From NCBI GenBank assembly GCA_033764615.1, contig JANRIU010000061.1:31090-95089 (forward strand): a DNA stretch of 64,000 bases, in the 5' to 3' direction. Position numbers and translations under genes: made by a program. The first letter of the stretch is position 1; every line of letters begins with the position of its first letter. Below the pieces are notes generated by a model that saw nothing but the letters and a program-made list of their open reading frames with translations, was not told the origin of the DNA and searched no databases. The DNA comes from Gemmatimonadales bacterium. Its GTDB lineage: Bacteria > Gemmatimonadota > Gemmatimonadetes > Gemmatimonadales > GWC2-71-9. Positions 14,503 to 58,438 of this stretch are shown in pieces.

Positions 14503-14567
14503 GGGAGGGATGGATGAAAGGGCCGCAAAGCTGGGGGCAGGGGGGCGGGGGGGCAAGGGGGGCCAGC

Positions 14568-14675
14568 GGGACGGACGGGCGGTCGGGCGGTCAGGCGGAC
14601 TGGGGGCGCGTCGTGCGGGCGGCCATCGTGCTGCTGGTGCTCCAGTCCGCCGGTCCGCCGGTCCGCCCGCCCGCC
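14568..14675. repeat. Family A inverted repeat enclosing a start codon
   Basis: G arm 14568-14601 (gcgggacggacgggcggtcgggcggtcaggcggac) and C arm 14644-14675 (agtccgccggtccgccggtccgcccgcccgcc). The loop contains GTG 14613. Confidence 0.65.
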
Positions 14676-22392: not shown

Positions 22393-22470
22393 GGCCCCCA
22401 GTCCCCGGCCCTCCGCCCCTGGCCCCAAAAAAAGAGGCCCGGCCACCCCGCACCGGACCTCCGTTCTGAC

Positions 22471-22499
22471 CGCTCGTCCGCCCGTCCGCCCGTCCGCCC
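22471..22499. repeat. Family A C-rich arm only
   Basis: cgctcgtccgcccgtccgcccgtccgccc lies immediately before the SGNH gene stop. Confidence 0.5.
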
Positions 22500-22501
22500 C
22501 C

Positions 22502-23761
22502 CTACGGCGTCTGCCCGATGAACCCGATCGTCCGCCCGTACCGGCGGTTGACGAGCGAGATCAGCGAGTCGGCGAAGATGCGGTGCGCGAGCGAACTCGG
22601 GTGCACGCCATCGAGCGAGAACCAGGTGCCGAACAGCAGGTTGCCACCGGTCTGGGGGCTCGGGAGCGCGGGGAACGGCAGCACCGCGCCGGCGATGGTG
22701 CGCCCCTGCTGCAGGATCGGGTTCGGGTCCATGAACGGCCAGGCGCGCGCCGTCGCCTCGCTCGACAGGTAGGCGTTGTACGCGGCGACGGTGGTCCGCA
22801 GGAAGCGGAACTCGGCGGGCGTCACCACCTGGGCGGTGTTGTTGCAGTCGAGCGTGACGGGGATGTTCCCCGCCGCCGCATTGACGAGCCCGATGCCGAT
22901 CGGCCACGGCACGAGCACCGAGTCCGCGCGGGGCGGCAGGCAGTTCGTCACCGTGAGCGCGGGCGGCAGCGCGGGCGTGATGCCGGGGCAGCCGCCGTTG
23001 CGGAGGCAGTGGTAGAGCGTGCCGGTCGAGGCGTACGGGAGGCTCGAGATGTCGCCGACGCCGATGATCACCGCCTGGGCGCCGAGGATCTGGATCGTGT
23101 CGAGCACCGCCTTCGCCTGCGCCTGGAACGTGGCGACGGGGACGACGAGGGTCGAGTCGCCGGGCTGGGACGCCGCCGGGTTCGCCGTGTTGACGTTCGT
23201 CAGCGAGCCGAGGATCTCGTTGTTGCCGAGCCAGAGCGAGACGAGCGTCGGGTTCGCGGCGCGGAGCGCCTGCAGCTGCGTGCGCCCGCCCAGGATGAAC
23301 TGGGTGAGCTGGTTGGCCGCGGAGGTCGGCGCGAAGTTGTTCGCGGCGTCCAGCATGCGCGCGCCCGGCACCGCGAGGTTGCTGAGGTACGGGAACGCGT
23401 TCGGGCTGCGGAGGCCGCACGTCGTCGCGGCGCCGCCGCCGACGCGCGCCTGCGTCACGTTGATCGTGAACGGCGGCGGGCAGCCGATGCCGGCGAGCGA
23501 CGGGTAGTAGAACGGGATCCGCGCCGCGCGGGCGAAGAGCACGGGGTAGGCGCGCTGCTGCGTCGAGTCGTTGATGCCGCTCGACTGGAAGCCCGCGGTG
23601 ATCGAGTTGCCGAGCGCGACGTAGCGCGTCAGCACGCCGGTGTTGGCCGTGAACTGCGGGTTCGTGATGCCGCTGGGCGCCACCTCGTCGGAGGCGCAGG
23701 CGGCCGCGAGCGCGAGCGCCGCGGGGGCGGCGAAGCGCGGGAACAGCGTCGGGAATCGCAT
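22502..23761 (-). CDS. SGNH/GDSL-family hydrolase lipoprotein
   Basis: ATG 23761 gives MRFPTLFPRFAAPAALALAAACASD (lipobox). Block I is YVALGNSITAGF. The C-terminal GVHPS is a block V-like His. Confidence 0.7.
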   Translation of the reverse strand: MRFPTLFPRFAAPAALALAAACASDEVAPSGITNPQFTANTGVLTRYVALGNSITAGFQSSGINDSTQQRAYPVLFARAARIPFYYPSLAGIGCPPPFTINVTQARVGGGAATTCGLRSPNAFPYLSNLAVPGARMLDAANNFAPTSAANQLTQFILGGRTQLQALRAANPTLVSLWLGNNEILGSLTNVNTANPAASQPGDSTLVVPVATFQAQAKAVLDTIQILGAQAVIIGVGDISSLPYASTGTLYHCLRNGGCPGITPALPPALTVTNCLPPRADSVLVPWPIGIGLVNAAAGNIPVTLDCNNTAQVVTPAEFRFLRTTVAAYNAYLSSEATARAWPFMDPNPILQQGRTIAGAVLPFPALPSPQTGGNLLFGTWFSLDGVHPSSLAHRIFADSLISLVNRRYGRTIGFIGQTP

Positions 23762-25284: not shown

Positions 25285-25446
25285 GGGGGGGCGGACGGGC
25301 GGAAGGGCGGACTGGCGGACGAGCGGACGAGCGGACAGGCGGACGCGATGGCGCGGGGCGTTCCGCCGTTGGCCTTCCAGGAGAGGCGGGACAGCCGGCA
25401 TCACCGGTCCGCCCGTCCGCCCGTCCGCCCGTCCGCTCGTCCGCCC
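25285..25446. repeat. Family A inverted repeat
   Basis: G arm 25285-25346 (ggggggcggacgggcggaagggcggactggcggacgagcggacgagcggacaggcggacg) and C arm 25407-25446 (gtccgcccgtccgcccgtccgcccgtccgctcgtccgccc). Confidence 0.7.
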
Positions 25447-25842
25447 CTACTGGGTCGCCGCCGTCAGCGGCAGCCGCGTCACCAGCGCGCCGTCGACGCT
25501 GATCTCGAAGTGGTAGGCGCCGGCCTTCGGGAGCGGGATGTCGAACATCAGCACCGCGCCCGCCTCCACGTCGGTCACGCCGGCGGGTGGCTCGCCGATC
25601 TGCACCTGTCCCTCGCCGTGCAGGAGCTCCGTCCCCTGGTCGTCGACGAAGCGGATGCCGATCGTGTGCGCACCGATCTCGGTGCGCCGGCCCCGCACCC
25701 GCAGCACGAGGTGCGTGCGCGGGTGCACCGTCGGGAACTGCGCCACCCAGACGTGCCCGAAGATGCCGAGCACGCTCAGCTTGCCCTGCTGGTCGATGAG
25801 GGCGTAGTCGCTGAGGACCGCGAAGTCGAGCTGCAGGCTCAG
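25447..25842 (-). CDS. Hypothetical protein (start uncertain, possible CTG)
   Basis: Coding-like sequence [47 protein letters not shown]... CTG 25842 overlaps the PPIase TGA. The next canonical in-frame start is a GTG about 22 codons in. Confidence 0.5.
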
Positions 25843-26370: not shown

Positions 26371-27093
26371 TCACCCCACCTGCACCGACGGACAGATCTC
26401 CGCCAGCACGCACGCCCCGCACTGCGGCCGCCGGGCGATGCAGACCTGGCGGCCGTGGAAGATCAGCAGGTGCGAGACGAGCGCCCAGTCGGCCTGCGGC
26501 ACCAGCGGCATCAGGTCGCGCTCGATCTTCTCCGCGTCGGTGTGGCGCGTCAGCTTGAGCAGCCGCGCCAGCCGGGTCACGTGCGTGTCGACGGTGATGC
26601 CGACGTTCAGGCAATACCAGTTGCCGAGCACGACGTTGGCCGTCTTCCGTCCGACGCCCGGCAGCACGCGCAGCGCCTCCATGTCGGCCGGCACCTCGCC
26701 GCGGTGGTCGGCGACGAGCGCCTGCGCCATCGCAATGAGGTTCCTCGCCTTGTTGCGGAAGAACCCGGTCGAGCGCACGAGCGCCTCGACGTCGTCCTGC
26801 CGCGCCGCCGCGAGCGCCGCCGCGTCCGGGTACCGCGCGAAGAGCGCCGGCGTCACCATGTTCACCCGCGCATCGGTGCACTGCGCCGACAGGATGGTGG
26901 CGCAGAGGAGCTCGAAGGCGTCGCGGTGCACGAGCGCGCAGTGCGCATCGGGGTAGGCGGCCTTCAGGCGCTCGAGCGCGCGGCCCGCGCGCTCGGCGCG
27001 GGCGGACAGGCGGGCTGGCGGACGGGCGGAAGCTGCCACGGCCTGCCGACGGTCCGCCCGTCCGCCCGACCGCCCGTCCGCCGCGTTAGCCAC
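26371..27093 (-). CDS. nth: Endonuclease III
   Basis: HhH-GPD motif LRVLPGVGRKTANVVL. 4Fe-4S cluster loop CIARRPQCGACVLAEIC. The N-terminal 30 codons run through a family A repeat. Confidence 0.85.
   Translation of the reverse strand: MANAADGRSGGRADRRQAVAASARPPARLSARAERAGRALERLKAAYPDAHCALVHRDAFELLCATILSAQCTDARVNMVTPALFARYPDAAALAAARQDDVEALVRSTGFFRNKARNLIAMAQALVADHRGEVPADMEALRVLPGVGRKTANVVLGNWYCLNVGITVDTHVTRLARLLKLTRHTDAEKIERDLMPLVPQADWALVSHLLIFHGRQVCIARRPQCGACVLAEICPSVQVG
27001..27082. repeat. Family A inverted repeat inside nth 5' end
   Basis: ggcggacaggcgggctggcggacgggcgg (27001-27029) faces gtccgcccgtccgcccgaccgcccgtccgcc (27052-27082). Confidence 0.65.
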
Positions 27094-28816
27094 GCCGCCT
27101 GGCCACCGCCAGGAACCCCGCCACGTCGCGCGTGTTCAGCACGTCCTCCGGGCGGAGCCACCCCTTCCGCGCGATGCCGACGCCGTACGGCACGTTGGCG
27201 ATGCCGGCGGTGTTGTGCGCGTCGGCGCCGATGGAGACGAGCGCGCCCGCGGCACGCGCCGCACGCACCATGCGCCAGTCGAGGTCGAGCCGGTGGGGGT
27301 CGGCGTTGATCTCGAGCGCGACGCCGGTCTCCGCGGCCTTCGCGATCACGGCGTCGAGGTCGATGGCGTACGGCTCGCGGCTCAGCAGCAGCCGCCCCGT
27401 CGGGTGCCCGAGGATCGTGAGCCGCGGGTGCTCCAGCGCGCGCAGCACGCGCGCCGTCATCTCCGCCTTCGGCAGGTTGAAGCGGCCGTGGATCGAGCCG
27501 ATCACGAAGTCGAGCCGCGCCAGCACCTCGTCCGGGTAGTCGAGCGCGCCATCGACGAGGATGTCCGACTCGATCCCCTTCAGCACGCGGAAGCCGGGGC
27601 CGAGCCGCGCGTTCACCGCGTCCACCTCGTCGGCCTGCCGCTGCAGGTCGTCGATGGAGAGGCCGCCCGCGTACGCCGCGGTGCGCGAGTGGTCGGTGAG
27701 GCCGAGGTACTCGTACCCCGCCGCCTGCGCCGCGCGCGCCATCTCCTCCACCGTGTTCGCGCCGTCGGAGAAGGTGGAGTGGCAGTGGAGGAAGCCGCGG
27801 ATGTCGCCCCGCTCCAGCAGGCGCGGGAGCGCGCCCGCGGCGGCGGCGGCGACCTCGTCCTGCCCCTCGCGCAGCTCGGGGGCGATGCACGGCAGGCCGA
27901 GTGCCGCGTAGAAGGCGGTCTCGTCGGGCGTCGGCACGAACACCGAGCCGCGCCAGAGCGCCGCGCCGGTCAGGGCGAGCCCGCGCGAGGCGGCGTGCGC
28001 CGCGAGCTGCTCCAGGTGCCGCGCGCAGCCCGTCGCCTGCGCGAGCACCGCGCCCGCGTTCACCGGCGTCGTGACGATCACCTGCGCGCGGTCGCCCGCG
28101 GCGGTGCGGAGCGTCACCGAGCGCTCGTCGCGCCCCGCGAACTCGGAGACGCCGGGCAGCTGCGCGAGCCGCTCGAACAGCTCGGACGGCGCCACGTCCG
28201 CCACCACCACGAGCGACACCTCCTGCACCACCTCCAGCCGCCGCCGCACCTCGCCGGCCACGTGCACGGCGAGCACGCCCGGCAGCGTCGCGAGCGCCGC
28301 GGCGAGCATCTCCGCCTCCTCCGCGGCATGGTGGAAGAGGCGGAACGCGCTCGCCTTCCGGCGGAAGGCGATCCCCTTCAGGATGTTCTCGGCGGTCTTC
28401 TGGCCGAAGCGGGGGAGGGCGGCGAGGCGGCCGTCCTGCGCCGCGGCCTCCAGCTCGGGGATCGAGTCGATGCCGAGCGTCTCGTGGATCTGGCGGATCT
28501 TGGCGACGCCGAGGCCGGAGATGTCGAGCATCTCGACGAGGCCGGGCGGCACCTGGCCGCGCAGCTCCTCCAGCAGCGACGAGCGGCCGGTGCGGACGAG
28601 CTCGGTGATGACCTGCAGCGTGGCGGGGCCGATGCCGCGGGTCCCCGCGAGCTGGCCGTCGGCGAGGGCGGCGTCGAGGTCGACGGCGAGCCCCTCGATG
28701 GTGCGGGCGGCGGTGCGCACCGCGCGGACGCGGAACGGGTTGTCGCCCTTGAGCTCCATGAAGCTCGCGACCTGCTCGAGGACGCTCGCGACCGCCTTCT
28801 TGTCCATCATCGCCAT
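27086..28816 (-). CDS. Family X DNA polymerase with PHP domain (PolX)
   Basis: N-terminal HhH polymerase beta-like region (FMELKGDNPFRVRAVRTAARTI; GIGPATLQVI). C-terminal PHP domain (GFLHCHSTFSDGANTVEEM; LTDHS). Confidence 0.9.
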   Translation of the reverse strand: MAMMDKKAVASVLEQVASFMELKGDNPFRVRAVRTAARTIEGLAVDLDAALADGQLAGTRGIGPATLQVITELVRTGRSSLLEELRGQVPPGLVEMLDISGLGVAKIRQIHETLGIDSIPELEAAAQDGRLAALPRFGQKTAENILKGIAFRRKASAFRLFHHAAEEAEMLAAALATLPGVLAVHVAGEVRRRLEVVQEVSLVVVADVAPSELFERLAQLPGVSEFAGRDERSVTLRTAAGDRAQVIVTTPVNAGAVLAQATGCARHLEQLAAHAASRGLALTGAALWRGSVFVPTPDETAFYAALGLPCIAPELREGQDEVAAAAAGALPRLLERGDIRGFLHCHSTFSDGANTVEEMARAAQAAGYEYLGLTDHSRTAAYAGGLSIDDLQRQADEVDAVNARLGPGFRVLKGIESDILVDGALDYPDEVLARLDFVIGSIHGRFNLPKAEMTARVLRALEHPRLTILGHPTGRLLLSREPYAIDLDAVIAKAAETGVALEINADPHRLDLDWRMVRAARAAGALVSIGADAHNTAGIANVPYGVGIARKGWLRPEDVLNTRDVAGFLAVARRRG

Positions 28817-32990: not shown

Positions 32991-34427
32991 ATGCCCCCCG
33001 AGAAGCCCCCCGGCGCGCCCGCCGACACGCCCACCGGCGCGCCGCCGCCGCCGCTGCGCGAGCTCGCGTTCATCCCGCTCGCCGTCGCGCTCAACGTGGC
33101 GATGGGCGTGCTCGCGAGCCAGCTCGGCCTCCCCGTCTTCCTCGACACGCTCGGCACGCTCCTCGGCGCGGCGCTCCTCGGCGCGCGCGTCGGCATGGCG
33201 GCGGGGCTCGTGAGCCAGCTCATCACCGCTCTGCAGGTCGGCGCGTTCATGCTGGCGTTCGCGCCGCTCCAGCTGCTCATCGCGGCGTGCGGCGCGCTGG
33301 CCGCGCGCGCGGGCGCGTTCCGCCGCCTGCCGACCGCGCTGCTGGCCGGCGCGCTCACGGGCGCGCTCGCGGGGGCCGTGTCGAGCCGGATCGCGTACAC
33401 GCTGTTCGGCGGCGTCACCGCGCCCGGTGTCTCGATGGTGACCGCCACGCTCCGCGCCCTCGGCCTCCCCCTCGACCTCGCCGTCGCCGCCGCGTCGATC
33501 AGCACGGACGTGCTCGACAAGGTGGTGGTGTTCGGCCTGGTGGCGGGGGTGCTGGCGGGCGGACGGGCGGACGGGCGGTCGGGCGGACGGGCGCTCCTCG
33601 CGGCAGCCGGCGAATCCGTGTGGGACCTTGGCTCCGCCCGCTCGCCCTTCCTTCCGCCCGTCGGCTCGTCGGCCCTACCGCCCGCGCAGCGTCCGCCCGA
33701 CCGCTCGTCCGCCCGTCCGCCCGCGCAGCGTCCGCCCGTCCGCTCGTCCGCCTCCAGCGCCGGCGCGACGGCGCTCGCCCTCACCCTCGCCGTCCTCCTG
33801 CTCGCGTACCTGCTGCCGCCGCCGTGGGGGCCGGTGGGGCTCGCGGGCGTCGTGGCGGTGGCGCTCGCGGGCGCGGGGCAGGCGCGCGCGCTCGGGCGCG
33901 CGACGGCGTTCTGCATACTGCCGTGGGGCTTCCTCGTCGTCATCCACGTGGTGCTCGGCGCGGCGGACGGCTGGACGGTGGCACTGGCGCAGGGGGCGCG
34001 GCTCTACGCGATCCTCGCGGCATCGGCCGCGCTGCTCGCGACGTTCGATGGCAACGCCTTCCTCGAGGCGGCGGCGGCGCGCGGATGGCCGTACCAGCTC
34101 GCGTACCTCGTCGTCGCCGCGCTGCAGGCGATCCCGCGGCTCGCGGCCCGCGCCGAGCGGATCCTCGAGGCGCAGCGGCTGCGCGGGCTCCGCGTGCGCG
34201 GCGGTCCGCTCGTGCGCGCGCGCGCGCTGCTGCCGCTCGCGGTGCCGCTCGCCGTCGGCGCGCTGCAGGAGGTGGACGCGCGCGCCATGGCGCTGGAGCT
34301 CCGTGGCCTCGGCGTCGCGCGCCGCACCGCGATCGCGCCGCCGCCCGACACCGCGCGCGACCGGCTGCTCCGCTGGGGCGCGCTCGCGCTCGTGCTGGCG
34401 GCGCTCGCGTGGCGGGTGCGCGGATGA
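32991..34427 (+). CDS. ECF-type transporter, S-component-like and T-component (EcfT/CbiQ-like) halves in one ORF
   Basis: The N-terminal half is a multi-TM S-like region (FIPLAVALNVAMGVLASQLGLPVFLDTLGT). The C-terminal half is EcfT-like (AQRLRGLRV). The two are joined by about 65 codons of family A repeat with no stop and no canonical restart. Confidence 0.6.
   Translation: MPPEKPPGAPADTPTGAPPPPLRELAFIPLAVALNVAMGVLASQLGLPVFLDTLGTLLGAALLGARVGMAAGLVSQLITALQVGAFMLAFAPLQLLIAACGALAARAGAFRRLPTALLAGALTGALAGAVSSRIAYTLFGGVTAPGVSMVTATLRALGLPLDLAVAAASISTDVLDKVVVFGLVAGVLAGGRADGRSGGRALLAAAGESVWDLGSARSPFLPPVGSSALPPAQRPPDRSSARPPAQRPPVRSSASSAGATALALTLAVLLLAYLLPPPWGPVGLAGVVAVALAGAGQARALGRATAFCILPWGFLVVIHVVLGAADGWTVALAQGARLYAILAASAALLATFDGNAFLEAAAARGWPYQLAYLVVAALQAIPRLAARAERILEAQRLRGLRVRGGPLVRARALLPLAVPLAVGALQEVDARAMALELRGLGVARRTAIAPPPDTARDRLLRWGALALVLAALAWRVRG
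33557..33752. repeat. Family A inverted repeat inside CDS; exact G3N5 periodic tract
   Basis: GGG tracts occur at 33557, 33565, 33573, 33581 and 33589, an exact 8-nt period. The C-rich side (33654-33752) contains a 39-bp direct duplication starting at 33678 and 33717. Confidence 0.8.
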
Positions 34428-35800
34428 GCGGGCTCAGGCTGGACGGCGTGACGTTCACGTACCCGGGCGCCCCCGCACCCGCGCTCCGCGACTGCGACCT
34501 CGCGGTCGAGCCGGGGACGCTCACCTGGCTCCGCGGCGAGGTGGGCGCGGGGTGCAGCACGCTGCTCCTCGTCGCGGCCGGGCTCGCGCCGCGGCACACG
34601 GGCGGGACGCTCACCGGGCGCGTCACGCGCGCGGGCACGCTCGGCTACGTCGGCGCGGAGCCGCGCACGCAGCTCTCGGGCGTCGCCGACACGGTCTTCG
34701 CCGAGGTGGCGTTCGCGCCGCAGAACCTCGGCTGGCCCGCCGACGACATCGTGCGCGCGACGTGGGCCTCGCTCGACCGGTTCGGCCTCGTGCCGCTCGC
34801 CGGCCGGCACCCCGAGCAGCTCTCGGGCGGCGAGCAGCAGCGGCTCCTGCTCGCCGCGCTCGACGTGCTCGCACCGGACGTCTGGCTGCTCGACGAGCCG
34901 ACCGCCGCGCTCGACGCCGAGTGGCGCGAGCGGGTGGAGCAGTGGATGCGGGACGAGGCGGGACGGGGGGCGGCGGTGCTCGTGGCGGACGGGCGGACGG
35001 GCGGACAGGCGGACGGGGATGCGGCGAGCGGTCCGCCAGCGAGGGAGGTGATGCTGGAGGCGGGTCGTGTCTGGCAGCCCCACCCCGCCGCGGCGTCCCC
35101 GCGGGCGTCCAGCCCGCGGGCAGCCGTCCCTGTCCGCCCGTCCGCTCGTCCGCCCGTCCGCCTGAAGCTGGCGGACGCCAGCTTCCGCTACGCCCCCGAC
35201 CGCCCCGTCCTCGACGCGCTCTCGCTGGAGGTGCTGGCGGGCGAGGTGCTGCTCGTGCTCGGGCCGAACGGCGCGGGGAAGAGCACGCTCCTCCGGCTCG
35301 TCACCGCTCTCGCGCATCCCGTGTCAGGCAGCGTGACGAGCGCGGGGCGCGACACGCGGGGGCGCGGGCCGGAGGACCTGGCGGACGTGGTGGGGACGGC
35401 GGTGCAGGACCCCGGCGTGCAGCTCTTCGAGCGCACGGTGCGGCGCGAGCTCGCGTGGGGGCCGCGCGTGCTCGGCTGGCCGCGCGAACGGGCGGCGGCA
35501 CGCGCGGAGGAGGTGCTGGCGCGGCTCGGCCTCGAGGCGGCCGCCGAGTCGCACCCGCTCGACCTCCCGCTCCCGCTCCGCAAGCGCGTCGCGCTCGGCA
35601 CCGCGCTGATGGTCACGCCGCAGCTCCTCGTGCTCGACGAGCCGACCGCCGGCACCGACCCCGCCACGCGCGACCTCGTGGCGCAGGCGATCCATGAGGA
35701 AGCCTCCCGCGGCGCCGCGGTCATCTGCGTGACGCACGACGCGTGGCTGCGGGAGGTGGTGGGGGGGAGGGAGCTGGTGCTGGGGCGTCGCGAGTCGTGA
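34424..35800 (+). CDS. Tandem (A-A') ABC ATPase of the ECF-type transporter
   Basis: ATGA overlap with the upstream gene. Domain 1: GEVGAGCST, LSGGEQQR, WLLDEPTAALD. Domain 2: GPNGAGKST, LPLPLRKRV, LVLDEPTAGTD, VTHD. Confidence 0.8.
   Translation: MSGLRLDGVTFTYPGAPAPALRDCDLAVEPGTLTWLRGEVGAGCSTLLLVAAGLAPRHTGGTLTGRVTRAGTLGYVGAEPRTQLSGVADTVFAEVAFAPQNLGWPADDIVRATWASLDRFGLVPLAGRHPEQLSGGEQQRLLLAALDVLAPDVWLLDEPTAALDAEWRERVEQWMRDEAGRGAAVLVADGRTGGQADGDAASGPPAREVMLEAGRVWQPHPAAASPRASSPRAAVPVRPSARPPVRLKLADASFRYAPDRPVLDALSLEVLAGEVLLVLGPNGAGKSTLLRLVTALAHPVSGSVTSAGRDTRGRGPEDLADVVGTAVQDPGVQLFERTVRRELAWGPRVLGWPRERAAARAEEVLARLGLEAAAESHPLDLPLPLRKRVALGTALMVTPQLLVLDEPTAGTDPATRDLVAQAIHEEASRGAAVICVTHDAWLREVVGGRELVLGRRES
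34984..35162. repeat. Family A inverted repeat inside the tandem ATPase CDS
   Basis: ggcggacgggcggacgggcggacaggcggacgggg (34984-35018) faces ccctgtccgcccgtccgctcgtccgcccgtccgcc (35128-35162). Confidence 0.7.
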
Positions 35801-35860
35801 GTCGCGGGTCGTCGGTCGCGTGGCAGGGGGCGCCGGTGCGTCGTGCCCCCCGCCGGTCAG

Positions 35861-35924
35861 GCCGCTCGCCCGCTCGTCTGCTCGCTCGTCAGACCGCCTG
35901 TCCGCCCGTCCGCTCGTCCGCCCG
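35861..35924. repeat. Family A C-rich arm array
   Basis: gccgctcgcccgctcgtctgctcgctcgtcagaccgcctgtccgcccgtccgctcgtccgccc. It overlaps the 3' end of the PEP-CTERM gene. Confidence 0.5.
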
Positions 35925-36659
35925 AGCACGCCTCGCCACCAGCGCCAGCCCGAGCATGCCCGTGCCGAACAGCACCATCGTCGCCGGCTCGGGGACGACG
36001 GAGCCGCCCGTGGTGCCGTTCATCAGCAGGCCGTCGGTCTGGCCGTCGCCGCGAAGGACGAACGTGAGGGTGTTGAACCCCGCGTCCAGGTTGAACGCGT
36101 ACGCCTTCGTGCAGTTCGGGAACGCGCTGCCGGCGAACATCCCGTCGCCGTTGCGGCAGAAGCCGAAGCGGTTCTCGTTGCCCGCGCCCAGCAGCGTCGT
36201 CGGCGAGAGCACCATCGTGCCGCCGGAGAAGACGAAGCCGGGCGACACCGTGCCGCCCACGTACGCGCCGAGGAAGCGGTTGTCGAAGCCGATGAGGCCC
36301 GAGACCGTGCCCGCCGTCGGCATGAAGACCGTCGTGCGGAACAGGTACTCGAAGCGCATCACGTTGTCGCCGCTCACGCCCGCGAGCGGCAGGGTGCCGT
36401 TCGAGCGCAGGCCGATCCAGCTGAAGCTCGGTGCGCTGTTCGGGTTCCAGGGCGCCGACGGGATGGTGGTGATGCGGGTCGCGTTCGGCTGGAACTCGGT
36501 GTACGTGCCACCGACCAGACGCCGGACCGAGACGGACCAGTCCGGGTCGGTCGCGGCGAGCGTGGCGCCCGTGTTCTTGAAGGGCTGCGCCTCGGCGGGG
36601 GAGCCGGACGCCGCAAGTGCGACGATGGAGAGACCAGCGATGGCGTAGTTGCGGAACAT
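35889..36659 (-). CDS. PEP-CTERM sorting-domain protein
   Basis: ATG 36659 gives MFRNYAIAGLSIVALAASGSPAEAQ. C-terminus VPEPATMVLFGTGMLGLALVARRAR. GGAGG lies upstream. Confidence 0.8.
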   Translation of the reverse strand: MFRNYAIAGLSIVALAASGSPAEAQPFKNTGATLAATDPDWSVSVRRLVGGTYTEFQPNATRITTIPSAPWNPNSAPSFSWIGLRSNGTLPLAGVSGDNVMRFEYLFRTTVFMPTAGTVSGLIGFDNRFLGAYVGGTVSPGFVFSGGTMVLSPTTLLGAGNENRFGFCRNGDGMFAGSAFPNCTKAYAFNLDAGFNTLTFVLRGDGQTDGLLMNGTTGGSVVPEPATMVLFGTGMLGLALVARRARADERTGGQAV

Positions 36660-36905: not shown

Positions 36906-37170
36906 CTGTCATTGCGAGCTCGCGCAGCGCACCCCGCGACTCCACCCACCTGTCATTGCGAGCTCGCGCAGCGCACGCCGCGACTCCACCCACCTGTCAT
37001 TGCAGGCTCGCGCAGCGCACGCCGCGACTCCACCCACCTGTCATTGCAGGCTCGCGCAGCGCACCCCGCGACTCCACCCACCTGTCATTGCAGGCTCGCG
37101 CAGCGCACCCCGCGACTCCACCCACCTGTCATTGCGAGCTCGCGCAGCGAGCGAAGCAACCTTGCCGGCG
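36906..37170. repeat. 44-bp head-to-tail tandem repeat (6 units) derived from the family B left arm
   Basis: Units start at 36906, 36950, 36994, 37038, 37082 and 37126. The unit is ctgtcattgcgagctcgcgcagcgcaccccgcgactccacccac. The last unit continues as a full left arm ...agcgagcgaagcaaccttgccggcg. Confidence 0.9.
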
Positions 37171-37885: not shown

Positions 37886-37920
37886 CCCGTCCGCTCCTCC
37901 GCTTGTCCGCCCGTCCGCCG
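37886..37920. repeat. Family A C-rich arm
   Basis: cccgtccgctcctccgcttgtccgcccgtccgccg lies between two minus-strand genes. Confidence 0.45.
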
Positions 37921-37922
37921 CG

Positions 37923-38984
37923 TCAGCGGGGCACGAAATCGGTGTCCGGCAGCAGCCGGGCGCAGAACTCCGCGAGCAGCTCCGCCGTGCGCGTCAGGTC
38001 CTCGAGCGCCATCATCTCGTTGGGGCTGTGCATGTACCGGTTCGGGACGCTCACGAGCCCGGTGGCGACGCCGCGGTGCGCGTTGAACACCGCCTCCGCG
38101 TCGGTGTGCGTGTCGCGCCCGATCGCCTCGATGGTGAACGGCATCCCCGCCCCCTCGGCGGCCTCGATCAGCGCGTCGCTCACGAGCGTGCTCACCGACG
38201 CACCGCGGGCGATCACCGGGCCCGAGCCGAGCTTGTGGTCGCCGTGCTTGCGCTTGTCGAGGCCGGGGTAGTCGGTCGCGTGGGTGACGTCGACGACGAT
38301 CGCCACCTGCGCGCCGGTGATCGCCGCCGAGGGGCGCGCGCCGCCGCCCGTCGCCGAGATCTCCTCGCGCGTGCTGGCGACGGCGGTGACGCACGGCTGC
38401 CGGATCGCGCGCGACTTGAGGATCCGCGTCGCCTCGAGCACGACCCAGGCGCCGATCCGGTTGTCGAGCGAGCGGCTGACGATGCGGCCGTTCGGGAAGT
38501 CGAGCACCTGGCTCGCGATCACGCCGGGGTCGCCGACGCGCACGCGCGACTCGGCCTCGCCCCGGTCCTTCGCGCCGATGTCGATCCACAGGTCGGTGAT
38601 GCGGGAGACCTTCGTCCGGTCGTCGGCGTCCATCAGGTGGATCGCCTTCTTGCCGATGACGCCGACCACGGGCCCGTCGCGCCCGAGCAGCTGGACGCGC
38701 TGGCCCACGAAGACCTGGCTGTCCCAGCCGCCGATCCCGTCGAACGAGAGGAAACCGTCCTCGTCGATGTGGCGGATGATGACGCCGATCTCGTCGATGT
38801 GGCCGATCAGGATCACCCGCGGCGTCCCCTGCGGATTGACGGTGGCGTAGCTGTTCCCCGACGCGTCGACATCGACGTGGTCGGCGAAGCGCGACGCCTC
38901 GCGGCGCCACACCCGTGCCGCCGGCGCCTCGAAGGCGGACGGGGCGGGGGTGTCGAGGAGGGTCTTGAGGAAGTCGAAGCTCAT
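37923..38984 (-). CDS. M42 family aminopeptidase (FrvX-like)
   Basis: MSFDFLKTLLDTPAPSAFE... and ILIGHIDEIGVIIRHIDEDGFLSF, typical of M42. Confidence 0.85.
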   Translation of the reverse strand: MSFDFLKTLLDTPAPSAFEAPAARVWRREASRFADHVDVDASGNSYATVNPQGTPRVILIGHIDEIGVIIRHIDEDGFLSFDGIGGWDSQVFVGQRVQLLGRDGPVVGVIGKKAIHLMDADDRTKVSRITDLWIDIGAKDRGEAESRVRVGDPGVIASQVLDFPNGRIVSRSLDNRIGAWVVLEATRILKSRAIRQPCVTAVASTREEISATGGGARPSAAITGAQVAIVVDVTHATDYPGLDKRKHGDHKLGSGPVIARGASVSTLVSDALIEAAEGAGMPFTIEAIGRDTHTDAEAVFNAHRGVATGLVSVPNRYMHSPNEMMALEDLTRTAELLAEFCARLLPDTDFVPR

Positions 38985-38987
38985 CGG

Positions 38988-39154
38988 AGGCGGACGGGCG
39001 GAAGGGCGGACGAGCGGACGGGCACCGTGGGCGGACGGGCGGACCGGCGGACTGACCGCGCGGCCCGGCCTCCGAAGCTAGCCTCCCGCCCCGATACAGT
39101 CCGCCCGTCCGCCGGTCCGCTCGTCCGCCCATGCAGCCCGTCCGCCCGTCCGCC
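38988..39154. repeat. Family A inverted repeat in a divergent promoter region
   Basis: G arm 38988-39054 and C arm 39099-39154, between the M42 start (38984) and the antiporter start (39166). Confidence 0.7.
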
Positions 39155-39165
39155 ATCTTCATCGG

Positions 39166-40764
39166 ATGCATCCCGAACTCCTCCAGCTCCTCCTCGCCGT
39201 CGGCATCGGTGCCACGGTGCTCGCGGTGAGCGCCCTGGCGCGGCGGCTGCCGGTGCCGGTGCCGATCCTCCAGCTGCTCGCGGGGCTCGCGCTCGGCTTC
39301 GTGCCGGGGCTCGCGGTACCGTCGCTCGACCCCGACGTGGTCTTCCTCGTCTTCCTCCCGCCCGTGCTCTGGGCGGCGGCGTACTTCACCTCGCTGCGCG
39401 ACTTCCGCCGGAACCTCCGCCCGATCGGCCTGCTCGCGATCGGGCTCGTCATCGTGACGACGGTCGCGGTGGCGGTCGCGGCGCGGGCGCTCTTCCCCGG
39501 CATGCCCTGGGCGGCGGCCGTGGCGCTCGGCGCCATCGTCTCGCCGCCGGATGCCGTCGCCGCCGAGGCGATCATCAAGCGGCTGCCGGTGCCGCACCGC
39601 GTCGTCACGGTGCTCGAGGGGGAGTCGCTCGTGAACGACGCCTCCGCGCTCACGCTCTACCGCACCGCGGTCGCGGCGGCGGTGACGGGCAGCTTCTCCG
39701 CCGGCGAGGCGACGGTGCGCTTCTTCATCGATGCGGGGGTCGGCGTGCTGGTGGGCGTCGCGGTCGGCTGGCTGCTCGTGGCCGTGAGCCGCCGCACCGA
39801 CGACACGCTCGCCGAGGTGCTGCTCACGCTGCTCGGGCCGTACCTCGCGTGGGTGATCGCCGAGCTGCTGCACGCGTCGGCGGTGCTCGCGGCGGTGGCG
39901 GGCGGGCTGTATGTGCGGCAGCACTTCAGCACGGTGGTGTCGGCGGCGTCGCGGCTGCAGGCGCGCGCGGTGTGGCAGATGCTCGTCTTCGTGCTGAACG
40001 CGCTGATCTTCCTGCTGCTTGGCCTCTCCGCGGGCGACCTCGTCCGCTCGCTCGAGCCCGGCACCGGGTCGCGCGTGCTCGGCGCGGGGCTCGCCATCAG
40101 TGCGGTCTGCATCGTGACGCGGCTCGCCTGGGTGCCGCTCGCGACGCTGCTGCCGCGCTGGCTCTCCCCGTCGCTCGCCCGGCGGGACCCGCTGCCGCCT
40201 GCGAAGCACACCTTCCTCGTCGCGTGGACGAGCATGCGCGGCATCGTCTCGCTCGCGTCGGCGCTCGCGCTGCCGCTCGCCCTCGCCGACGGGACGCCGT
40301 TCCCGTTCCGCACCGAGATCCTGCTCGTGACGATGCTGGTGATCCTGGTCACGCTGGTGGCGCAGGGGCTCACGCTCGCGCCGATCATCCGCGCGTTCGC
40401 GTTCCCGCCCGAGACGGCGCATCACGAGGAGGAGCGCGTGGCGCGCGCGGAGGCGGTGCGCCACGCGCTCGACCGGCTGGAGGACCTCCGGCACGAGCCG
40501 TGGGTGCATGCCGAGCACGTGGAGACGCTGGGCGCGCAGTACCGGCGCAAGGTGCAGGTCGTCTCCGAGCTCGCCCACACGGAGGGTGCCGCCGCCGAGG
40601 ACGCCGCCGCGCGCCGCCGCCTCCGCTGGGAGACGATCGACGCCGAGCGCCGCGCCCTCGTGCGCCTCCGGAACGAGGGCGTCATCGGCGACGAGGTCCT
40701 GCACGAGCTGGAGCGCGAGCTGGACGTGGAGGCGATGCGGATCGGGATGGGGGAGGCCCGATAG
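39166..40764 (+). CDS. CPA1-family Na+/H+ antiporter
   Basis: 532 aa, about 12 TM segments, with a C-terminal cytoplasmic helical domain. N-terminus MHPELLQLLLAVGIGATVLAVSALARRLPVPVPILQLLAG. Confidence 0.85.
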   Translation: MHPELLQLLLAVGIGATVLAVSALARRLPVPVPILQLLAGLALGFVPGLAVPSLDPDVVFLVFLPPVLWAAAYFTSLRDFRRNLRPIGLLAIGLVIVTTVAVAVAARALFPGMPWAAAVALGAIVSPPDAVAAEAIIKRLPVPHRVVTVLEGESLVNDASALTLYRTAVAAAVTGSFSAGEATVRFFIDAGVGVLVGVAVGWLLVAVSRRTDDTLAEVLLTLLGPYLAWVIAELLHASAVLAAVAGGLYVRQHFSTVVSAASRLQARAVWQMLVFVLNALIFLLLGLSAGDLVRSLEPGTGSRVLGAGLAISAVCIVTRLAWVPLATLLPRWLSPSLARRDPLPPAKHTFLVAWTSMRGIVSLASALALPLALADGTPFPFRTEILLVTMLVILVTLVAQGLTLAPIIRAFAFPPETAHHEEERVARAEAVRHALDRLEDLRHEPWVHAEHVETLGAQYRRKVQVVSELAHTEGAAAEDAAARRRLRWETIDAERRALVRLRNEGVIGDEVLHELERELDVEAMRIGMGEAR

Positions 40765-40866
40765 GCGGACGAGCGGACGGGCGGACTGGCGGACGGGCAT
40801 AGCGCTCCAGACGCCGCACCGGCGCGGGACCACCGTCCGCCCGTCCGCCTGACCGCCCGTCCGCCC
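40764..40866. repeat. Family A inverted repeat between convergent genes
   Basis: ggcggacgagcggacgggcggactggcggacgggc (40764-40798) faces gtccgcccgtccgcctgaccgcccgtccgccc (40845-40866). A further 8-bp hairpin agcgggcc/ggcccgct at 40871-40890 spans the Kir-like gene stop. Confidence 0.7.
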
Positions 40867-42712: not shown

Positions 42713-42895
42713 AGGCGGACGAGCGGACGGGCGGACGGGCGGACTGGCGGACGGGGCTTCGCAGGCGGACGAGCGGACGGGCGGACTGGCGGACGAGGTC
42801 GCGCAGGGATAGTGTACCGAGCGGTAAAGAACAGTCCGCTCGTCCGCCCGACCGCCCGTCCGCCTCATGCGGTCCGCCCGACCGCCCGTCCGCCC
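42713..42895. repeat. Family A inverted repeat with duplicated arms
   Basis: The G side carries two copies of cttcgcaggcggacgagcggacgggcgga (about 42706 and 42757). The C side carries two copies of gtccgcccgaccgcccgtccgcc (42835-42895). It sits in the divergent region with the TetR gene. Confidence 0.7.
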
Positions 42896-47825: not shown

Positions 47826-48102
47826 GTCATTGCGAGGCCCGGAGCGGTCCCTGGAGCCGCTGTCATTGCGAGGCCGCGGAGCGGCCGAAGCAACCTTGCT
47901 GGCGTCGGCGAGATGCGCGTTCTTCAGTGGCTGTCATTGCGAGGCTGCGGAGCGGCCGAAGCAACCTTGCCGGCGAGCGCCGGGACCGCGGCAGCACGCG
48001 ACCCACCGGTGCGCGCGAAGAAGGTTGCTTCGCTCGCTGCGCGAGCTCGCAATGACAGCTCTTGGAAGGTCATTGCGAGGCCGCGGAGCGGCCGAAGCAA
48101 CC
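47826..48102. repeat. Family B cluster (four left arms, one right arm)
   Basis: Left arms start at 47826 (truncated), 47862, 47933 and 48069. The right arm is at 48021-48056. The cluster sits at the GC and content transition into the defence island. Confidence 0.85.
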
Positions 48103-48150
48103 ATGCTGGCGTGCGCCAGGAAAGCGCTCCAGGACGGGCAGGGGTCGCCG

Positions 48151-48179
48151 TTGCCTGTGGCCGCTGACGTAAGTACGAT
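48151..48179 (+). promoter_or_regulatory. Sigma-70-like promoter candidate for mazEF
   Basis: TTGCCT (48151-48156), a 17-nt spacer, then TACGAT (48174-48179). AGGAG at 48196-48200 lies 6 nt before GTG 48207. Confidence 0.4.
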
Positions 48180-48206
48180 GTGATTACCCTAGGACAGGAG
48201 CGGCAC

Positions 48207-48446
48207 GTGAGGACCCGCCTCATCCGCATTGGCAATTCGAGAGGCGTCCGGCTCCCGAAGCCGGTACTCCAGCAGGCGGGGCTCGTGGACGAGGTCGAGA
48301 TCCGCGTCGAGCCTGGTGCCATTACCATCGCCGCCGTGGGGTCGCCGCGTGCCGGCTGGGCGGCTGCGGCAGCGGGCGTCGAGCCCGCCGGCCTGCTCGA
48401 TGCGGCGACCGCCACGACGTTCGACGAGCGCGACTGGACGTGGTAG
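48207..48446 (+). CDS. mazE: AbrB/MazE/SpoVT-family antitoxin
   Basis: VRTRLIRIGNSRGVRLPKPVLQQAGLVDEVEIRVEPGAITI is a swapped-hairpin motif. It overlaps the toxin gene start. Confidence 0.75.
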   Translation: MRTRLIRIGNSRGVRLPKPVLQQAGLVDEVEIRVEPGAITIAAVGSPRAGWAAAAAGVEPAGLLDAATATTFDERDWTW

Positions 48447-48772
48447 GCGCAGCGGTCCGGCGGGGCGACGTGTGGCTGGTCGAGCTCAACCCGACCCGCG
48501 GCCGCGAGATCCGCAAGACGCGGCCCTGCGTGGTGGTGTCACCTGATGAGCTCAACGCGCACATGGGCACCTTCATCGTCGCCCCGCTGACGACGGGCAG
48601 CCATCGTTATCCGTTCCGCGTGCCTGTCCGCTTCCGCGGCAAGGACGGCCACGTCGTGCTCGACCAGCTGCGCACCGTGGACCGGGAGCGGCTGCTGGAG
48701 CGGCTGGGCTCGCTGACTGCCACGACGCTTGGCAAGGTCCTGGCGGTACTGGGAGAGATGTTCGCGCCGTGA
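48440..48772 (+). CDS. mazF: MazF/PemK-family endoribonuclease toxin
   Basis: RRGDVWLVELNPTRGREIRKTRPCVVVSPDELN...FIVAPLTT...VVLDQLRTVDRERL. Confidence 0.85.
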   Translation: MVGAAVRRGDVWLVELNPTRGREIRKTRPCVVVSPDELNAHMGTFIVAPLTTGSHRYPFRVPVRFRGKDGHVVLDQLRTVDRERLLERLGSLTATTLGKVLAVLGEMFAP

Positions 48773-49161
48773 GGGGGGCGGGCCTCGTCAAGTGGCCCGC
48801 TCGCCGCATAACACGGTCAGGTTGACGCGGGTGAGCTGTCGTTCGCGCGGCGGTGGTTCTGCCCCGCCCCCCGGCCAGCTGCGTCGATGTCGACGCGGAA
48901 ACCCGAAGATGGTGGTAGCGGCCAGCGCCGCCAGAGCTTCAATGGAGCCGGGTGTCAACGCCGGTCGATGTTGCCCACTTTCGCCGGTTGATCTTGCACA
49001 CTCGGCGGGCGGCCAGCCCGGGCGTCAGGTGCCGGGCGCGGGCCTGCGATTGCTGTAACGTCACCGTCGGCCGCCGCAGCGCGCGTCCTGCCTGCGGCAT
49101 CGGCAGTTCGGCGCTGGGCCGGTGACGCTGTGCCGATACCCTTGTTCGTGGAGGAATCCGC

Positions 49162-49896
49162 GTGACCTCGCGCCTCGCCCCTGCCAGTGCCTACAAGGCC
49201 GCCTTCGCCGCCCTCGCCGAGCGCGGCCTCGCCGAGAGCTGCCGTACGATGCTCGCGGCGCACTACGCCATGTCAGGGCATGTGGCGACGATGCGGTATC
49301 TGTGTGCGGCCATCGGGCGGCCCGCCGAGTATCGGGCGGGGAACCTCATCTACGGTGGACTGGCGAAGCGCGTGCGGCTGGAGCTCGGCCTGCCGTTCCT
49401 CGGCCTCGAGCTCGGTACCTTGGCGACCTACCCTGAGGACCCGATCGACGCGCTCGGTGAGTTCTCGTTCCGGATGCGTCCCGAGGTCTGCAGGGCGCTC
49501 GAGTCGCTTGGCTGGGTGCGCAGCGGCGCCCGGACCCCGCGGCCCCGGCGCGACCTGCCCCGTACGGCGGTCGAAGGCGCACGGCGGGAGCAGCTCGTGG
49601 CGCATCGCCGCCGCGAGCGCGGGCTTCGCGAGGCCAAGATCGCGGAGGCGTTGACGCGATCGCGCGATGGCCGCCTGCGCTGCGAAGTGCCAGGCTGCGG
49701 CTTCGACTTCGAGAGGACTTACGGCGCGGCCAGGCGCGGATACATCCAGATCCATCACATGAAGCCGCTGGGCGACTGGGCGAAGGGGGAGCGGCCCCGC
49801 CTGGAGGAGCTCGCGCTGGTGTGCGCGAACTGCCATGCGATGATCCACGCGGGGGGAAGGTCGCGCAGGTTGGAGACGCTCATTGTGCGGTGGTAG
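49162..49896 (+). CDS. HNH endonuclease with uncharacterised N-terminal domain (McrA/COG3183-like)
   Basis: GTG start with GGAGGA upstream. The C-terminus CEVPGCGFDF...IQIHHMKPL...LALVCANCHAMIH is a CxxC...HH...N...CxxC H (HNH) motif. Confidence 0.8.
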   Translation: MTSRLAPASAYKAAFAALAERGLAESCRTMLAAHYAMSGHVATMRYLCAAIGRPAEYRAGNLIYGGLAKRVRLELGLPFLGLELGTLATYPEDPIDALGEFSFRMRPEVCRALESLGWVRSGARTPRPRRDLPRTAVEGARREQLVAHRRRERGLREAKIAEALTRSRDGRLRCEVPGCGFDFERTYGAARRGYIQIHHMKPLGDWAKGERPRLEELALVCANCHAMIHAGGRSRRLETLIVRW

Positions 49897-50064
49897 ACGG
49901 GGCGTGAGGAAAAGGCTGCGCCTGCGAAGGTCTGCTGCAGCGGACTCGTCGCAGGCCTTTGCCGCGATCCCCTCGATATCTGCCAGATTCGAGCTGCATG
50001 AAGAATGAGGCTCGCACATGGACTGCCACAGAGGCACCAGCACCACGGCGCGTCAGAAGGAAGC

Positions 50065-58413: not shown

Positions 58414-58438
58414 GTTCGGTCCTGGGTTGTCACAGGAG

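Follow-up and report, generated by a model that had tools for sequence, protein, structure and literature searches.

Octamer hairpin repeats dispersed through a Gemmatimonadales genome and their probable kinship with S23p (PF05635) cassettes

Described systems with inverted tandem-unit arms

PF05635, the S23p/Avd-like family of four-helix-bundle proteins, is known from the intervening sequences (IVSs) of 23S rRNA. To our knowledge, no enzymatic or mobility activity has been described for this family. In Coxiella burnetii, Leptospira, and Xanthomonas, the IVS with an S23p ORF is, like the repeats described here, a hairpin bounded by terminal inverted repeats with tandem units at the arm; the PF05635 ORF lies inside it, as it does in an Azospirillum IVS and in a cassette on contig C47 of the genome studied here (G000). 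The helix-45 IVS of C. burnetii is built from tandem heptamers (GACAGAT) whose copy number differs among strains, has a 28-bp terminal stem, and undergoes RNase III excision (PMC4990558). The structure 2GSC is described as a homopentameric toroid, and the Coxiella PF05635 protein is probably not even made (PMC4990558). In contrast to these IVSs, the copies found in the window (the whole 64-kb stretch of DNA that was analyzed) lie outside rRNA, lack an ORF, are built from octamers, belong to a family of about 134 loci in this genome, and are placed next to stop codons or read in frame within protein genes; by analogy, they might also be processed by RNase III.

Two further systems are comparable in layout. 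The class 1 sites of Geobacter metallireducens (PMC2700814) likewise comprise four tandem octanucleotides per site and occur as opposite-strand pairs at a variable distance in tens of copies. The Geobacter unit is GTTGCTYN versus GGCGGACN here, and no protein partner has been proposed for it past IHF/HU; the two share an architecture and are different families. The REP/REPIN-RAYT systems likewise combine multicopy extragenic palindromes scattered over a genome with one cognate gene, which lies between copies of the repeat. Here, however, there is no Y1 transposase, each arm is built from tandem units and not from a single conserved 20- to 40-mer, the centers are not conserved, and the candidate partner protein is a four-helix bundle without known catalytic activity.

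The cyanobacterial STRRs (PMC2670836) are likewise tandem 7-bp units with hairpin-forming capacity located between genes, but they come from a different phylum and differ in unit length and composition. On Anabaena and Calothrix plasmids, we found genes for four-helix-bundle proteins flanked by inverted heptamer arrays. The link between STRRs and PF05635 is our observation on four loci, for which we found no published result; nor did we find, in the literature consulted, a paper linking PF05635 genes to dispersed gene-less tandem-unit hairpins. Finally, the Rickettsia palindromic elements (RPEs) are an example of palindromes that persist within protein genes without disrupting the reading frame. 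Five in-frame copies of the present repeat, all in interdomain linkers, resemble them in this regard, whereas RPE sequences are, as generally understood, conserved over their full length and lack tandem-unit arms.

Anatomy and placement of the elements

The host is a Gemmatimonadales genome of 3.3 Mb that is 97.7% complete. The repeat that drew attention to the family lies at positions 33557 to 33591, where the plus strand reads GGGCGGACGGGCGGACGGGCGGTCGGGCGGACGGG, with five G3 tracts at a spacing of 8 nt, and can be written as (GGGCGGAC)x4.4. Tandem Repeats Finder (TRF) reports a period of 8, 4.8 copies, and 93% matches for 33556 to 33593, in agreement with the direct reading of tandem 8-nt units in the original prediction. 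We found that this repeat forms a single arm within one member of a family of dispersed hairpin repeats. When up to two mismatches are allowed, GGCGGACNGGCGGAC has 92 matches in the window versus 5.8 ± 2.6 (maximum, 15) in dinucleotide shuffles, and arms are present at all 14 loci that had been listed (145, 5689, 12184, 14568, 22471, 25285, 27001, 33557, 34984, 35861, 37886, 38988, 40764, and 42713). The features are as follows, those without a strand being unstranded.

145 to 203, element: G-arm 145-159, C-arm 181-203; the upstream gene's TAG overlaps the arm's first G
5690 to 5777, element: 4+4 units; between a leader-peptide region and a start at 5791
12185 to 12341, element: 4+4 units, center of 95 nt; C-arm abuts the TGA of minus-strand gene 12343-12609
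14570 to 14675, element: 4+4 units; overlaps the called 5' end of ORF 14514-15305
22468 to 22498, minus strand, single arm: directly 3' of the TAG of minus-strand gene 22502-23761; followed by a hairpin and T-run
25290 to 25445, element: 7+5 units; abuts the TAG of minus-strand gene 25447-25773
27001 to 27082, element: 4+4 units, center of 20 nt; 3 nt from the TAA of minus-strand gene 27086-28816
32991 to 34427, plus strand, 478-aa ORF: ECF S-like membrane part, element-encoded linker, and CbiQ/EcfT domain
33556 to 33593, plus strand, flagship G-arm: 4.8 GGCGGACN units; the frame reads ...AGGRADGRSGGRA... within ORF 32991-34427
33653 to 33752, plus strand, flagship C-rich partner arms: period of 39 nt x2.6, built from GTCCGCCN units
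34984 to 35162, plus strand, element: G-arm 34984-35014, C-arm 35132-35162; read in frame within ORF 34424-35800, where it separates two ABC ATPase halves
35856 to 35922, minus strand, single arm: strict 35892-35922 plus degenerate units; C-terminal tail of PEP-CTERM protein 35889-36659 (minus strand)
37886 to 37924, minus strand, arm: 3 nt past the TGA of M42 peptidase gene 37923-38984 (minus strand)
38989 to 39154, doubled element: arms 38989-39019 and 39030-39052, then 39099-39129 and 39140-39154; fills a divergent gap with start codons at 38984 and 39166
40764 to 40865, element: 4+4 units, between convergent genes; the Na/H exchanger gene's TAG overlaps the arm's first G
42714 to 42894, doubled element: 5+4 then 4+3 units; divergent gap from 42690 (minus strand) to a TetR gene start at 42899

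The predicted paired-arm layout holds at most of these loci, but single arms occur at 22476, 35892, and 37886 and doubled arms at 38989 and 42714. The copies at 33557 and 34984 are inside open reading frames rather than between genes. There are no arms past 45 kb, matching the earlier remark that the 48- to 64-kb island is free of them; this stretch has a lower GC content (66 to 70% versus 72 to 78% elsewhere). The genes flanking the window loci are housekeeping genes in both orientations. None of the 14 loci has a PF05635 (S23p) ORF between its arms, and their locations are intergenic or in protein ORFs instead of helix 25 or 45 of 23S rRNA, the location typical of an IVS. They are gene-less relatives of the IVS-type PF05635 cassette and not full members of that class. 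The window has no Rfam family match at the gathering score, and no integron attC core-site consensus (RYYYAAC/GTTRRRY) is visible in the arms.

Across the genome, we identified 198 arms at about 134 loci, with 146 of the arms paired. Each element consists of two inverted arms, each with about four tandem GGCGGACN units (exactly four in 138 of the 198 arms), around a unique center. The original prediction placed a C-rich arm 20 to 110 nt after the G-rich one; this order was recovered in 56 of 57 adjacent pairs, the gap ranging from 11 to 182 nt (median, 47 nt). With arms of 31 nt, a complementarity of about 88%, the capacity to form a stem of about 25 to 35 bp, and whole elements that fold at -87 kcal/mol on average (minimum free energy), the description of inverted pairs with hairpin potential is borne out, as is their REP-like character: they are dispersed, mostly extragenic palindromes at high copy number, as in REP/REPIN systems.

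In ORF 32991-34427, the S-like part spans residues 1 to 190, the element-encoded linker about residues 190 to 258, and the CbiQ/EcfT domain residues 259 to 439; among the flagship's C-rich partner arms, strict arms lie at 33707-33721 and 33730-33752. In most relatives searched, ECF S and T are two genes in different frames, whereas here the flagship copy sits in frame between them and yields one fused ORF. In the element at 34984 to 35162, the 117-nt center still codes for the native ABC strand, so the two arms here did not arrive together as a preformed hairpin. Five copies are in frame inside interdomain linkers, including that of the essential gene polA (DNA polymerase I); the units are free of stop codons in every frame, which would explain how such copies can survive.

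The element positions beside orthologous genes are not conserved in the relatives checked: the ECF locus of relatives lacks arrays, as does the surrounding of the M42 peptidase orthologue, these relatives being only genus level or more distant, with no true empty sites alignable at the DNA level. Within the unit, in contrast to the variable positions 1, 6, and 8, positions 2 to 5 and 7 are about 99% invariant. Partner arms show no covariation; they differ by 3.54 mismatches versus 3.30 for arms from different loci and are thus slightly less alike than random partners. An invariant core among varying positions is like a recognition motif, and arms that do not covary to preserve pairing would likewise suit double-stranded DNA operator arrays, in which each arm offers four sites for a global regulator or nucleoid protein, a reading put forward for the paired G. 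metallireducens octamers, and the elements act as insulators or roadblocks between genes. The bracketing of whole intergenic gaps by arms and the layout shared with the Geobacter class 1 sites (PMC2700814) point in the same direction, as does a 7-mer core of the unit that is common to several genera. Nevertheless, we consider such operator arrays improbable, given that positions beside orthologous genes are not kept in other genera, which would be surprising in a regulon, that copies lie in frame inside essential genes such as polA, and that no candidate regulator was found besides the PF05635 protein. For the last reason, the operator reading would merge with our main explanation if the PF05635 protein binds the arms.

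The most distinctive aspect of placement is the relationship to stop codons. The median stop-to-arm distance is 2 nt, and in 65 of the 198 arms, the stop of a coding ORF lies within 8 nt of the outer edge, with a TAG overlapping the first G in 17. TAG accounts for 57% of arm-adjacent stops versus 23% of stops genome-wide. In tail-to-head gaps (n = 25), arms lie at a median distance of 2 nt on the stop side and 48 nt on the start side, the former being shorter in 24 of 25; in convergent gaps (n = 6), both arms abut stops. Only 3 of 38 assignable pairs are in divergent regions, which make up 23% of intergenic regions, and 9 of 38 are in convergent gaps, which make up 11%. Hence, the divergent promoters, convergent genes, and gene 5' ends named in the original prediction do occur as sites, but stop-codon abutment dominates and divergent regions are underrepresented.

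This anchoring, together with the convergent enrichment, the high stability of the stems, and the roles in transcript stability or translational coupling suggested for STRRs (PMC2670836), could be read as pointing to transcript-end devices evolved by the host independently of any PF05635 cassette, i.e., terminators lacking a U-tract or 3' stabilizing hairpins comparable to E. coli REP/BIME or the proposed STRR hairpins. We view this as a doubtful account. At least five T's in the 10 nt past the C-arm are seen in only 5 of the 198 arms and TTTT in 2; a structural device would not need the 7-mer that is conserved across genera; and copies are also present in some divergent gaps and ORFs.

Several established classes were tried as matches and set aside. 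As an intrinsic terminator, the element has the hairpin and lacks the U-tract. A MITE is disfavored by the unique interiors and by target-site duplications (2 to 5 nt), which are no more frequent than in shuffles; the outer and inner flanks likewise show no excess complementarity, and the centers of gene-less copies show no similarity among themselves or to the cassette interior. A RAYT/Y1 transposase (PF01797) was not found in this 97.7%-complete genome and is thus rejected as the repeat's partner, and no reverse transcriptase was found in it from which the arrays could have originated in a DGR-like or telomerase-like manner.

G-quadruplex motifs in the arms

The arms had been described as textbook G-quadruplex motifs, with the G-arms folding into G4 and the C-arms into i-motifs and with polymerase pausing or the binding of G4 proteins as a possible outcome. 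The flagship arm itself fits this picture: it satisfies the canonical rule and has a G4Hunter score of 1.51. As a property of the family, the description is not supported. The pattern (G3+N1-7)x3G3+ is matched by the flagship and 28 other arms (29 of 198) and unmatched by 85% of arms, the mean G4Hunter score is 1.04, and 1.5 is reached by the flagship only (1 of 198). The two unit positions that make up the G3 run, 8 and 1, are among the three least conserved, with G in 71% and 88% of cases, respectively, and in G061, only about half of the listed units have G as the spacer base. Related cassettes elsewhere use units without G runs, e.g., TCAGAAT, AGCCATC, and TTAGCTG. The G-quadruplex motif is therefore a chance by-product of the unit sequence that arises in a few copies.

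Energetic considerations lean the same way. A small G4 stabilizes the isolated G-arm by about 3 kcal/mol in 47 of 56 cases, but with the complementary arm 11 to 182 nt off, the hairpin is about 75 kcal/mol more stable than any fold of an arm alone, and in ViennaRNA with the G4 option, a quadruplex enters the minimum-energy fold of only 3 of 56 whole elements. There is some asymmetry that a quadruplex function might exploit, as the G-arm is 5' on both strands, so that transcription from either side meets the G-rich non-template strand first, and G exceeds C in the upstream arms of 33 of 37 cassettes. Given the fold energies and the weak conservation of the G tracts, we regard quadruplex folding as the basis of the family as very improbable. 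Cruciform extrusion with unpaired centers of 11 to 182 nt likewise appears unlikely. More generally, G4 motif scans in very GC-rich genomes may flag repeats that are conserved for another feature.

The PF05635 cassette and a candidate mechanism

The sole PF05635 gene in the genome (C47:2245-2652; 135 aa), recovered by a profile hit and with an E value of 5e-20 to PDB 2GSC, is bracketed by the same arms, with a G-arm at 2096-2130 and a C-arm at 2627-2649. Given the arm density, the chance of arms bracketing this one gene is about 1e-4, which also counts against transcript-end devices unrelated to the cassette. Comparable arrangements are common: flanking tandem arrays with a period of 7 to 10 were found at 59 of 60 PF05635 loci of related genomes in the order, on both sides in 52. 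Reverse-complementing the downstream unit in most cases gives a rotation of the upstream one. The same architecture is seen on Anabaena variabilis plasmid C, in Calothrix PCC 7716, and in the Azospirillum 23S rRNA IVS, a control locus at which LSU rRNA is the only Rfam match.

The heptamer-flanked PF05635 proteins form one clade; on the protein tree, the period-7 label requires 4 changes versus 18.9 in shuffles, none of which (n = 500) reached so low a number. Both protein clades occur in 14 genomes, each with its own repeat period. That the period follows the protein clade is our basis for proposing that the PF05635 protein recognizes the tandem units. The cassette unit equals the dispersed unit within the same genome only: GGCGGTAN is found 124 times in G062, 54 times in G012, and not at all in three other genomes, and GTCGGATN has 24 hits in G105 and 0 in four others. 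PF05635 is present in 105 of 121 genomes, which makes a comparison of its presence or absence with that of GGCGGAC arrays uninformative. In G007, G111, G015, G125, and G068, there are 49 to 183 GGCGGAC-array hits, and GGCGGACN octamer arms are found at 0 of the 30 PF05635 loci fetched from these genomes (all four matches in the case of G068).

On the basis of these observations, the best explanation, to which we assign a probability of roughly 0.6, is a dispersed hairpin repeat that is kin to the IVS-type PF05635 cassette, with a putative function and mobility. The elements are probably the gene-less counterparts of such a cassette; the association is strong, and its direction is inferred. Several observations weigh against this explanation: the lack of similarity of gene-less centers to one another and to the cassette interior, the lack of target-site duplications, partner arms that match no better than arms from different loci, the native coding center at 34984 to 35162, the lack of a known activity of PF05635 together with the Coxiella protein that is probably not produced, and the absence of GGCGGACN arms from the 30 loci fetched from five array-rich genomes. 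Under this explanation, the PF05635 protein would recognize the tandem units, and base pairing between the arms of a transcript would give a stem of about 30 bp that is rich in GC. Such stems are cleaved by RNase III in rRNA IVSs, and the same cut can be envisaged for these elements by analogy. Anchored at a stop codon, the stem might define the 3' end of the preceding transcript or serve in its processing, or might merely be tolerated there. The flagship occupies the ECF S-T boundary in frame and joins both genes into one ORF.

A more specific and tentative proposal is that the S23p/Avd-like homopentamer reads tandem 7- to 12-nt units, about one per subunit (the arrays having about 4 to 5 units), and forms with the inverted arrays a transposase-free, REPIN/RAYT-like system in which arms are gained at gene boundaries around native DNA and not as ready-made hairpins. 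If true, one mechanism would lie behind 23S rRNA IVSs, cyanobacterial STRR repeats, the "global regulator" sites of Geobacter, and the Gemmatimonadales octamer hairpins. The role of the S23p protein, the origin of rRNA IVSs, and the meaning of the STRR and Geobacter paired sites are questions that are decades old. The present genome offers a clean case, with one protein gene, one unit type, about 134 gene-less copies, and a sharp stop-codon rule, so that the relation of protein and repeat is directly testable. The family also illustrates that stop-free repeats are able to fuse neighboring genes (ECF S-T and EcfA1-A2) or extend linkers, e.g., that of DNA polymerase I.

Octamer arms and their anchoring at stop codons

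The plus strand at 33557-33591 reads GGGCGGACGGGCGGACGGGCGGTCGGGCGGACGGG, a tandem array of 8-nt units as originally predicted (TRF: period 8, 4.8 copies, 93% matches), and all 14 loci listed in that prediction bear such arms. The two-unit motif, allowing up to two mismatches, has 92 matches in the window versus 5.8 ± 2.6 in dinucleotide shuffles. Across the source genome, a 3.28-Mb draft of 103 contigs with 74% GC in which the window corresponds to contig C41, 31090-95089, we counted 198 arms of at least three units, 138 of which have exactly four. The order of a G-rich arm followed by a C-rich arm holds in 56 of 57 neighboring arm pairs genome-wide, with a median gap of 47 nt (range, 11 to 182 nt); a relaxed criterion pairs 146 arms and leaves 52 solo. 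The approximately 134 loci are moderately clustered: three 20-kb bins hold 5 to 7 loci (mean per bin, 0.88), and the first 43 kb of the window belongs to these dense stretches. As noted earlier, the elements are missing from 48000-64000, a lower-GC island (66 to 70% versus 72 to 78%) where confident gene calls are sparse and octamer arms absent and which is probably foreign DNA.

The elements are anchored at stop codons: the median stop-to-arm distance in 25 tail-to-head gaps is 2 nt, versus 48 nt from arm to start. A coding-ORF stop lies within 8 nt of the outer edge of 65 of the 198 arms, and in 17 of these the G of a TAG stop is also part of the arm; TAG makes up 57% of arm-adjoining stops versus 23% genome-wide. 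In six convergent gaps, each stop is abutted by one arm, with both arms engaged. Among 38 assignable pairs, 26 are codirectional, 9 convergent, and 3 divergent, compared with 66%, 11%, and 23% of all intergenic regions. The convergent and divergent sites of the original prediction thus exist, but abutment to stop codons is the sharpest rule, and divergent sites fall below their background frequency.

The centers are unique, with essentially zero loop-to-loop similarity, and partner arms show no extra complementarity relative to arms from different loci (3.54 versus 3.30 mismatches over ~29 nt). Neither target site duplications nor U-tracts were found at the elements of this genome, which also has no RAYT and no reverse transcriptase. 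Element positions are not conserved across genera; no array adjoins M42 peptidase orthologs (60 to 68% identity) in four genera that share the GGCGGAC core.

In the window, that peptidase start faces a Na/H exchanger start across a 180-nt divergent gap filled by a doubled element (38984-39166), leaving only a 46-nt center for two promoters, and a Shine-Dalgarno sequence is absent beside both starts. Another element (5690-5777) lies between an aromatic leader-peptide attenuator (5522-5649) and the downstream biosynthetic gene start (5791), where its stem could interfere with, or be part of, the attenuator switch. Outside the window, a variant unit, GGCGGGCA, forms arrays of 4 to 7 copies on contigs C13, C30, C37, and C57; these are mostly solo, and a TAG stop often forms the array start. 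A 44-nt tandem repeat at 36906-37149 (5.5 copies, 97% identity, unit CTGTCATTGCAAGCTCGCGCAGCGCACCCCGCGACTCCACCCAC) and a related GTCATTGCGAGGC...GCCGAAGCAACC motif, which adjoins solo arms on contigs C18 and C57, probably constitute a second repeat family.

Hairpin and quadruplex potential of the arms

The arms had been described as textbook G-quadruplex motifs, a description that does not extend to the family, as only 29 of the 198 arms satisfy the canonical rule. In the unit logo, positions 2 to 5 (GCGG) and 7 (C) are ~99% invariant, and the positions that make the G3 runs are variable (G at position 8 in 71% and at position 1 in 88%). The mean G4Hunter score is 1.04, and a score of at least 1.5 is reached by the array at 33557-33591 alone (1.51). 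The predicted hairpin potential of the inverted arm pairs is borne out by ViennaRNA, in which whole elements fold as hairpins even with the quadruplex option on (mean, -87 kcal/mol; -134.6 kcal/mol for the element that includes the 33557-33591 array). A quadruplex enters the minimum-energy fold of 3 of 56 whole elements, and a small one stabilizes isolated arms by only ~3 kcal/mol. Among the listed units of a related genome sharing the core (G061), about half have G as the spacer base, and the units of homologous cassettes elsewhere are devoid of G runs. On the basis of the logo, scores, folds, and relatives' units, the array at 33557-33591 marks the most quadruplex-like end of the family, which conserves other features, and quadruplex formation is no more than a side property.

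Arms shared with a PF05635 cassette

These dispersed, stop-codon-anchored inverted octamer repeats have their arms in common with the sole S23p cassette of the genome. A search for PF05635 (S23p/Avd-like, 23S rRNA intervening sequence [IVS] protein) returned exactly one match (contig C47, 2245-2652), bracketed by a GGCGGACN G-arm (2096-2130) and a C-arm (2627-2649), an arrangement with a chance of ~1e-4 given the arm density. Its product matches PDB 2GSC (E = 5e-20), a homopentameric toroid of four-helix bundles (PMC4990558).

Of the 121 genomes of the order, 105 have PF05635, with as many as 13 copies in one genome. Tandem arrays of period 7 to 10 lie beside the gene at 59 of 60 loci fetched, on both sides in 52, and reverse complementing the downstream unit usually gives a rotation of the upstream one. 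In the protein tree, heptamer-flanked members form one supported clade, and the protein from the source genome belongs to the 8- to 10-mer clade; the heptamer label requires 4 changes versus 18.9 in shuffles (none of the 500 shuffles was as low), and 14 genomes have one protein of each clade, each keeping its own period. The dispersed unit is the cassette-side unit, within that genome alone: GGCGGTAN has 124 matches in G062, 54 in G012, and none in three other genomes, and GTCGGATN has 24 in G105 and none in four others. At loci L092 to L118, from five related genomes (G007, G015, G111, G125, and G068), each PF05635 copy within a genome has its own unit sequence, with periods from 7 to ~12, which suggests many coresident, non-cross-reacting protein-repeat pairs.

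The GGCGGAC core has a patchy occurrence across genera. No GGCGGACN octamer arms occur at 30 PF05635 loci fetched from five other array-rich genomes (in G068, all four matches were inspected); hence, arrays can outlive or outrun a recognizable cognate cassette, unless the cassette is missing from the assemblies.

The same layout is found outside the phylum, on Anabaena variabilis plasmid C (TCAGAAT/ATTCTGA arrays) and in Calothrix PCC 7716 (TTAGCTG/AGCTAAA arrays). A 23S rRNA gene (Rfam LSU, 743 bits) on plasmid AZO_p2 of Azospirillum lipoferum 4B (13901-15284) contains an IVS with an unannotated PF05635 ORF flanked by inverted GAGGACG heptamer arrays. The Coxiella IVS likewise has tandem heptamers at its arm and a 28-bp terminal stem and is excised by RNase III (PMC4990558). 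S23p-bearing rRNA IVSs are the closest known system; they have the same protein family, tandem units, and a terminal stem but occupy a different location, and the gene is missing from the window copies. The class 1 paired sites of Geobacter metallireducens have an identical architecture, with their function unexplained (PMC2700814). REPIN/RAYT systems follow a similar logic, but the octamer family lacks their defining Y1 transposase. The Anabaena and Calothrix loci indicate that cyanobacterial STRR repeats (PMC2670836) are probably the same phenomenon. Our literature search found no paper tying PF05635 to dispersed gene-less arrays, and the interest of the octamer family is that it makes the S23p/IVS/STRR question testable.

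The tandem units are probably recognized by an S23p-like pentamer. In RNA, the arms would form a ~30-bp stem like those that RNase III cleaves in IVSs, and this stem would either give the upstream message a defined or processed 3' end or simply be tolerated there. The unit is stop-free in every frame, which is probably why in-frame copies persist.

Elements within open reading frames

Besides the element that begins with the 33557-33591 arm, in-frame copies include the following.

34984-35162: within ORF 34424-35800, separating two ABC ATPase halves
C89, 68842-68950: DNA polymerase I, linker between the 5'-nuclease and Klenow parts
C57, 88523-88685: MBL-fold/rhodanese fusion, interdomain linker
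C30, 18414-18512: two-lobed M16 peptidase, interdomain linker

The element with the 33557-33591 arm encodes residues ~190 to 258 of ORF 32991-34427 (478 aa), in which residues 1 to 190 match an ECF S-like membrane protein of relatives and residues 259 to 439 form a CbiQ/EcfT domain. In most related genomes with the locus, S and T are separate genes, mostly in different frames with an overlap of ~20 nt, and no period-8 arrays occur at these loci; in one genus (G006), the ORF is also fused, with an unrelated linker. No stop codon interrupts the element and no plausible start for T lies inside it, so that a single S-T protein is read.

The counterparts of the ATPase halves of ORF 34424-35800 are likewise two genes in different frames in relatives. 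The G-arm of 34984-35162 is inserted immediately ahead of the H-loop Asp in the first ECF ATPase, and the 117-nt center still encodes the native strand, AREVMLEAGRV, alignable with relatives; hence, the arms there bracket native DNA. Together with the unique centers and lack of target site duplications, this argues against simple insertion of a complete hairpin. The first ATPase lacks the ~50-residue C-terminal extension of its relatives. The arm at 35892-35922 encodes the last ~10 residues, past the sorting motif, of a PEP-CTERM protein (35889-36659, minus strand).
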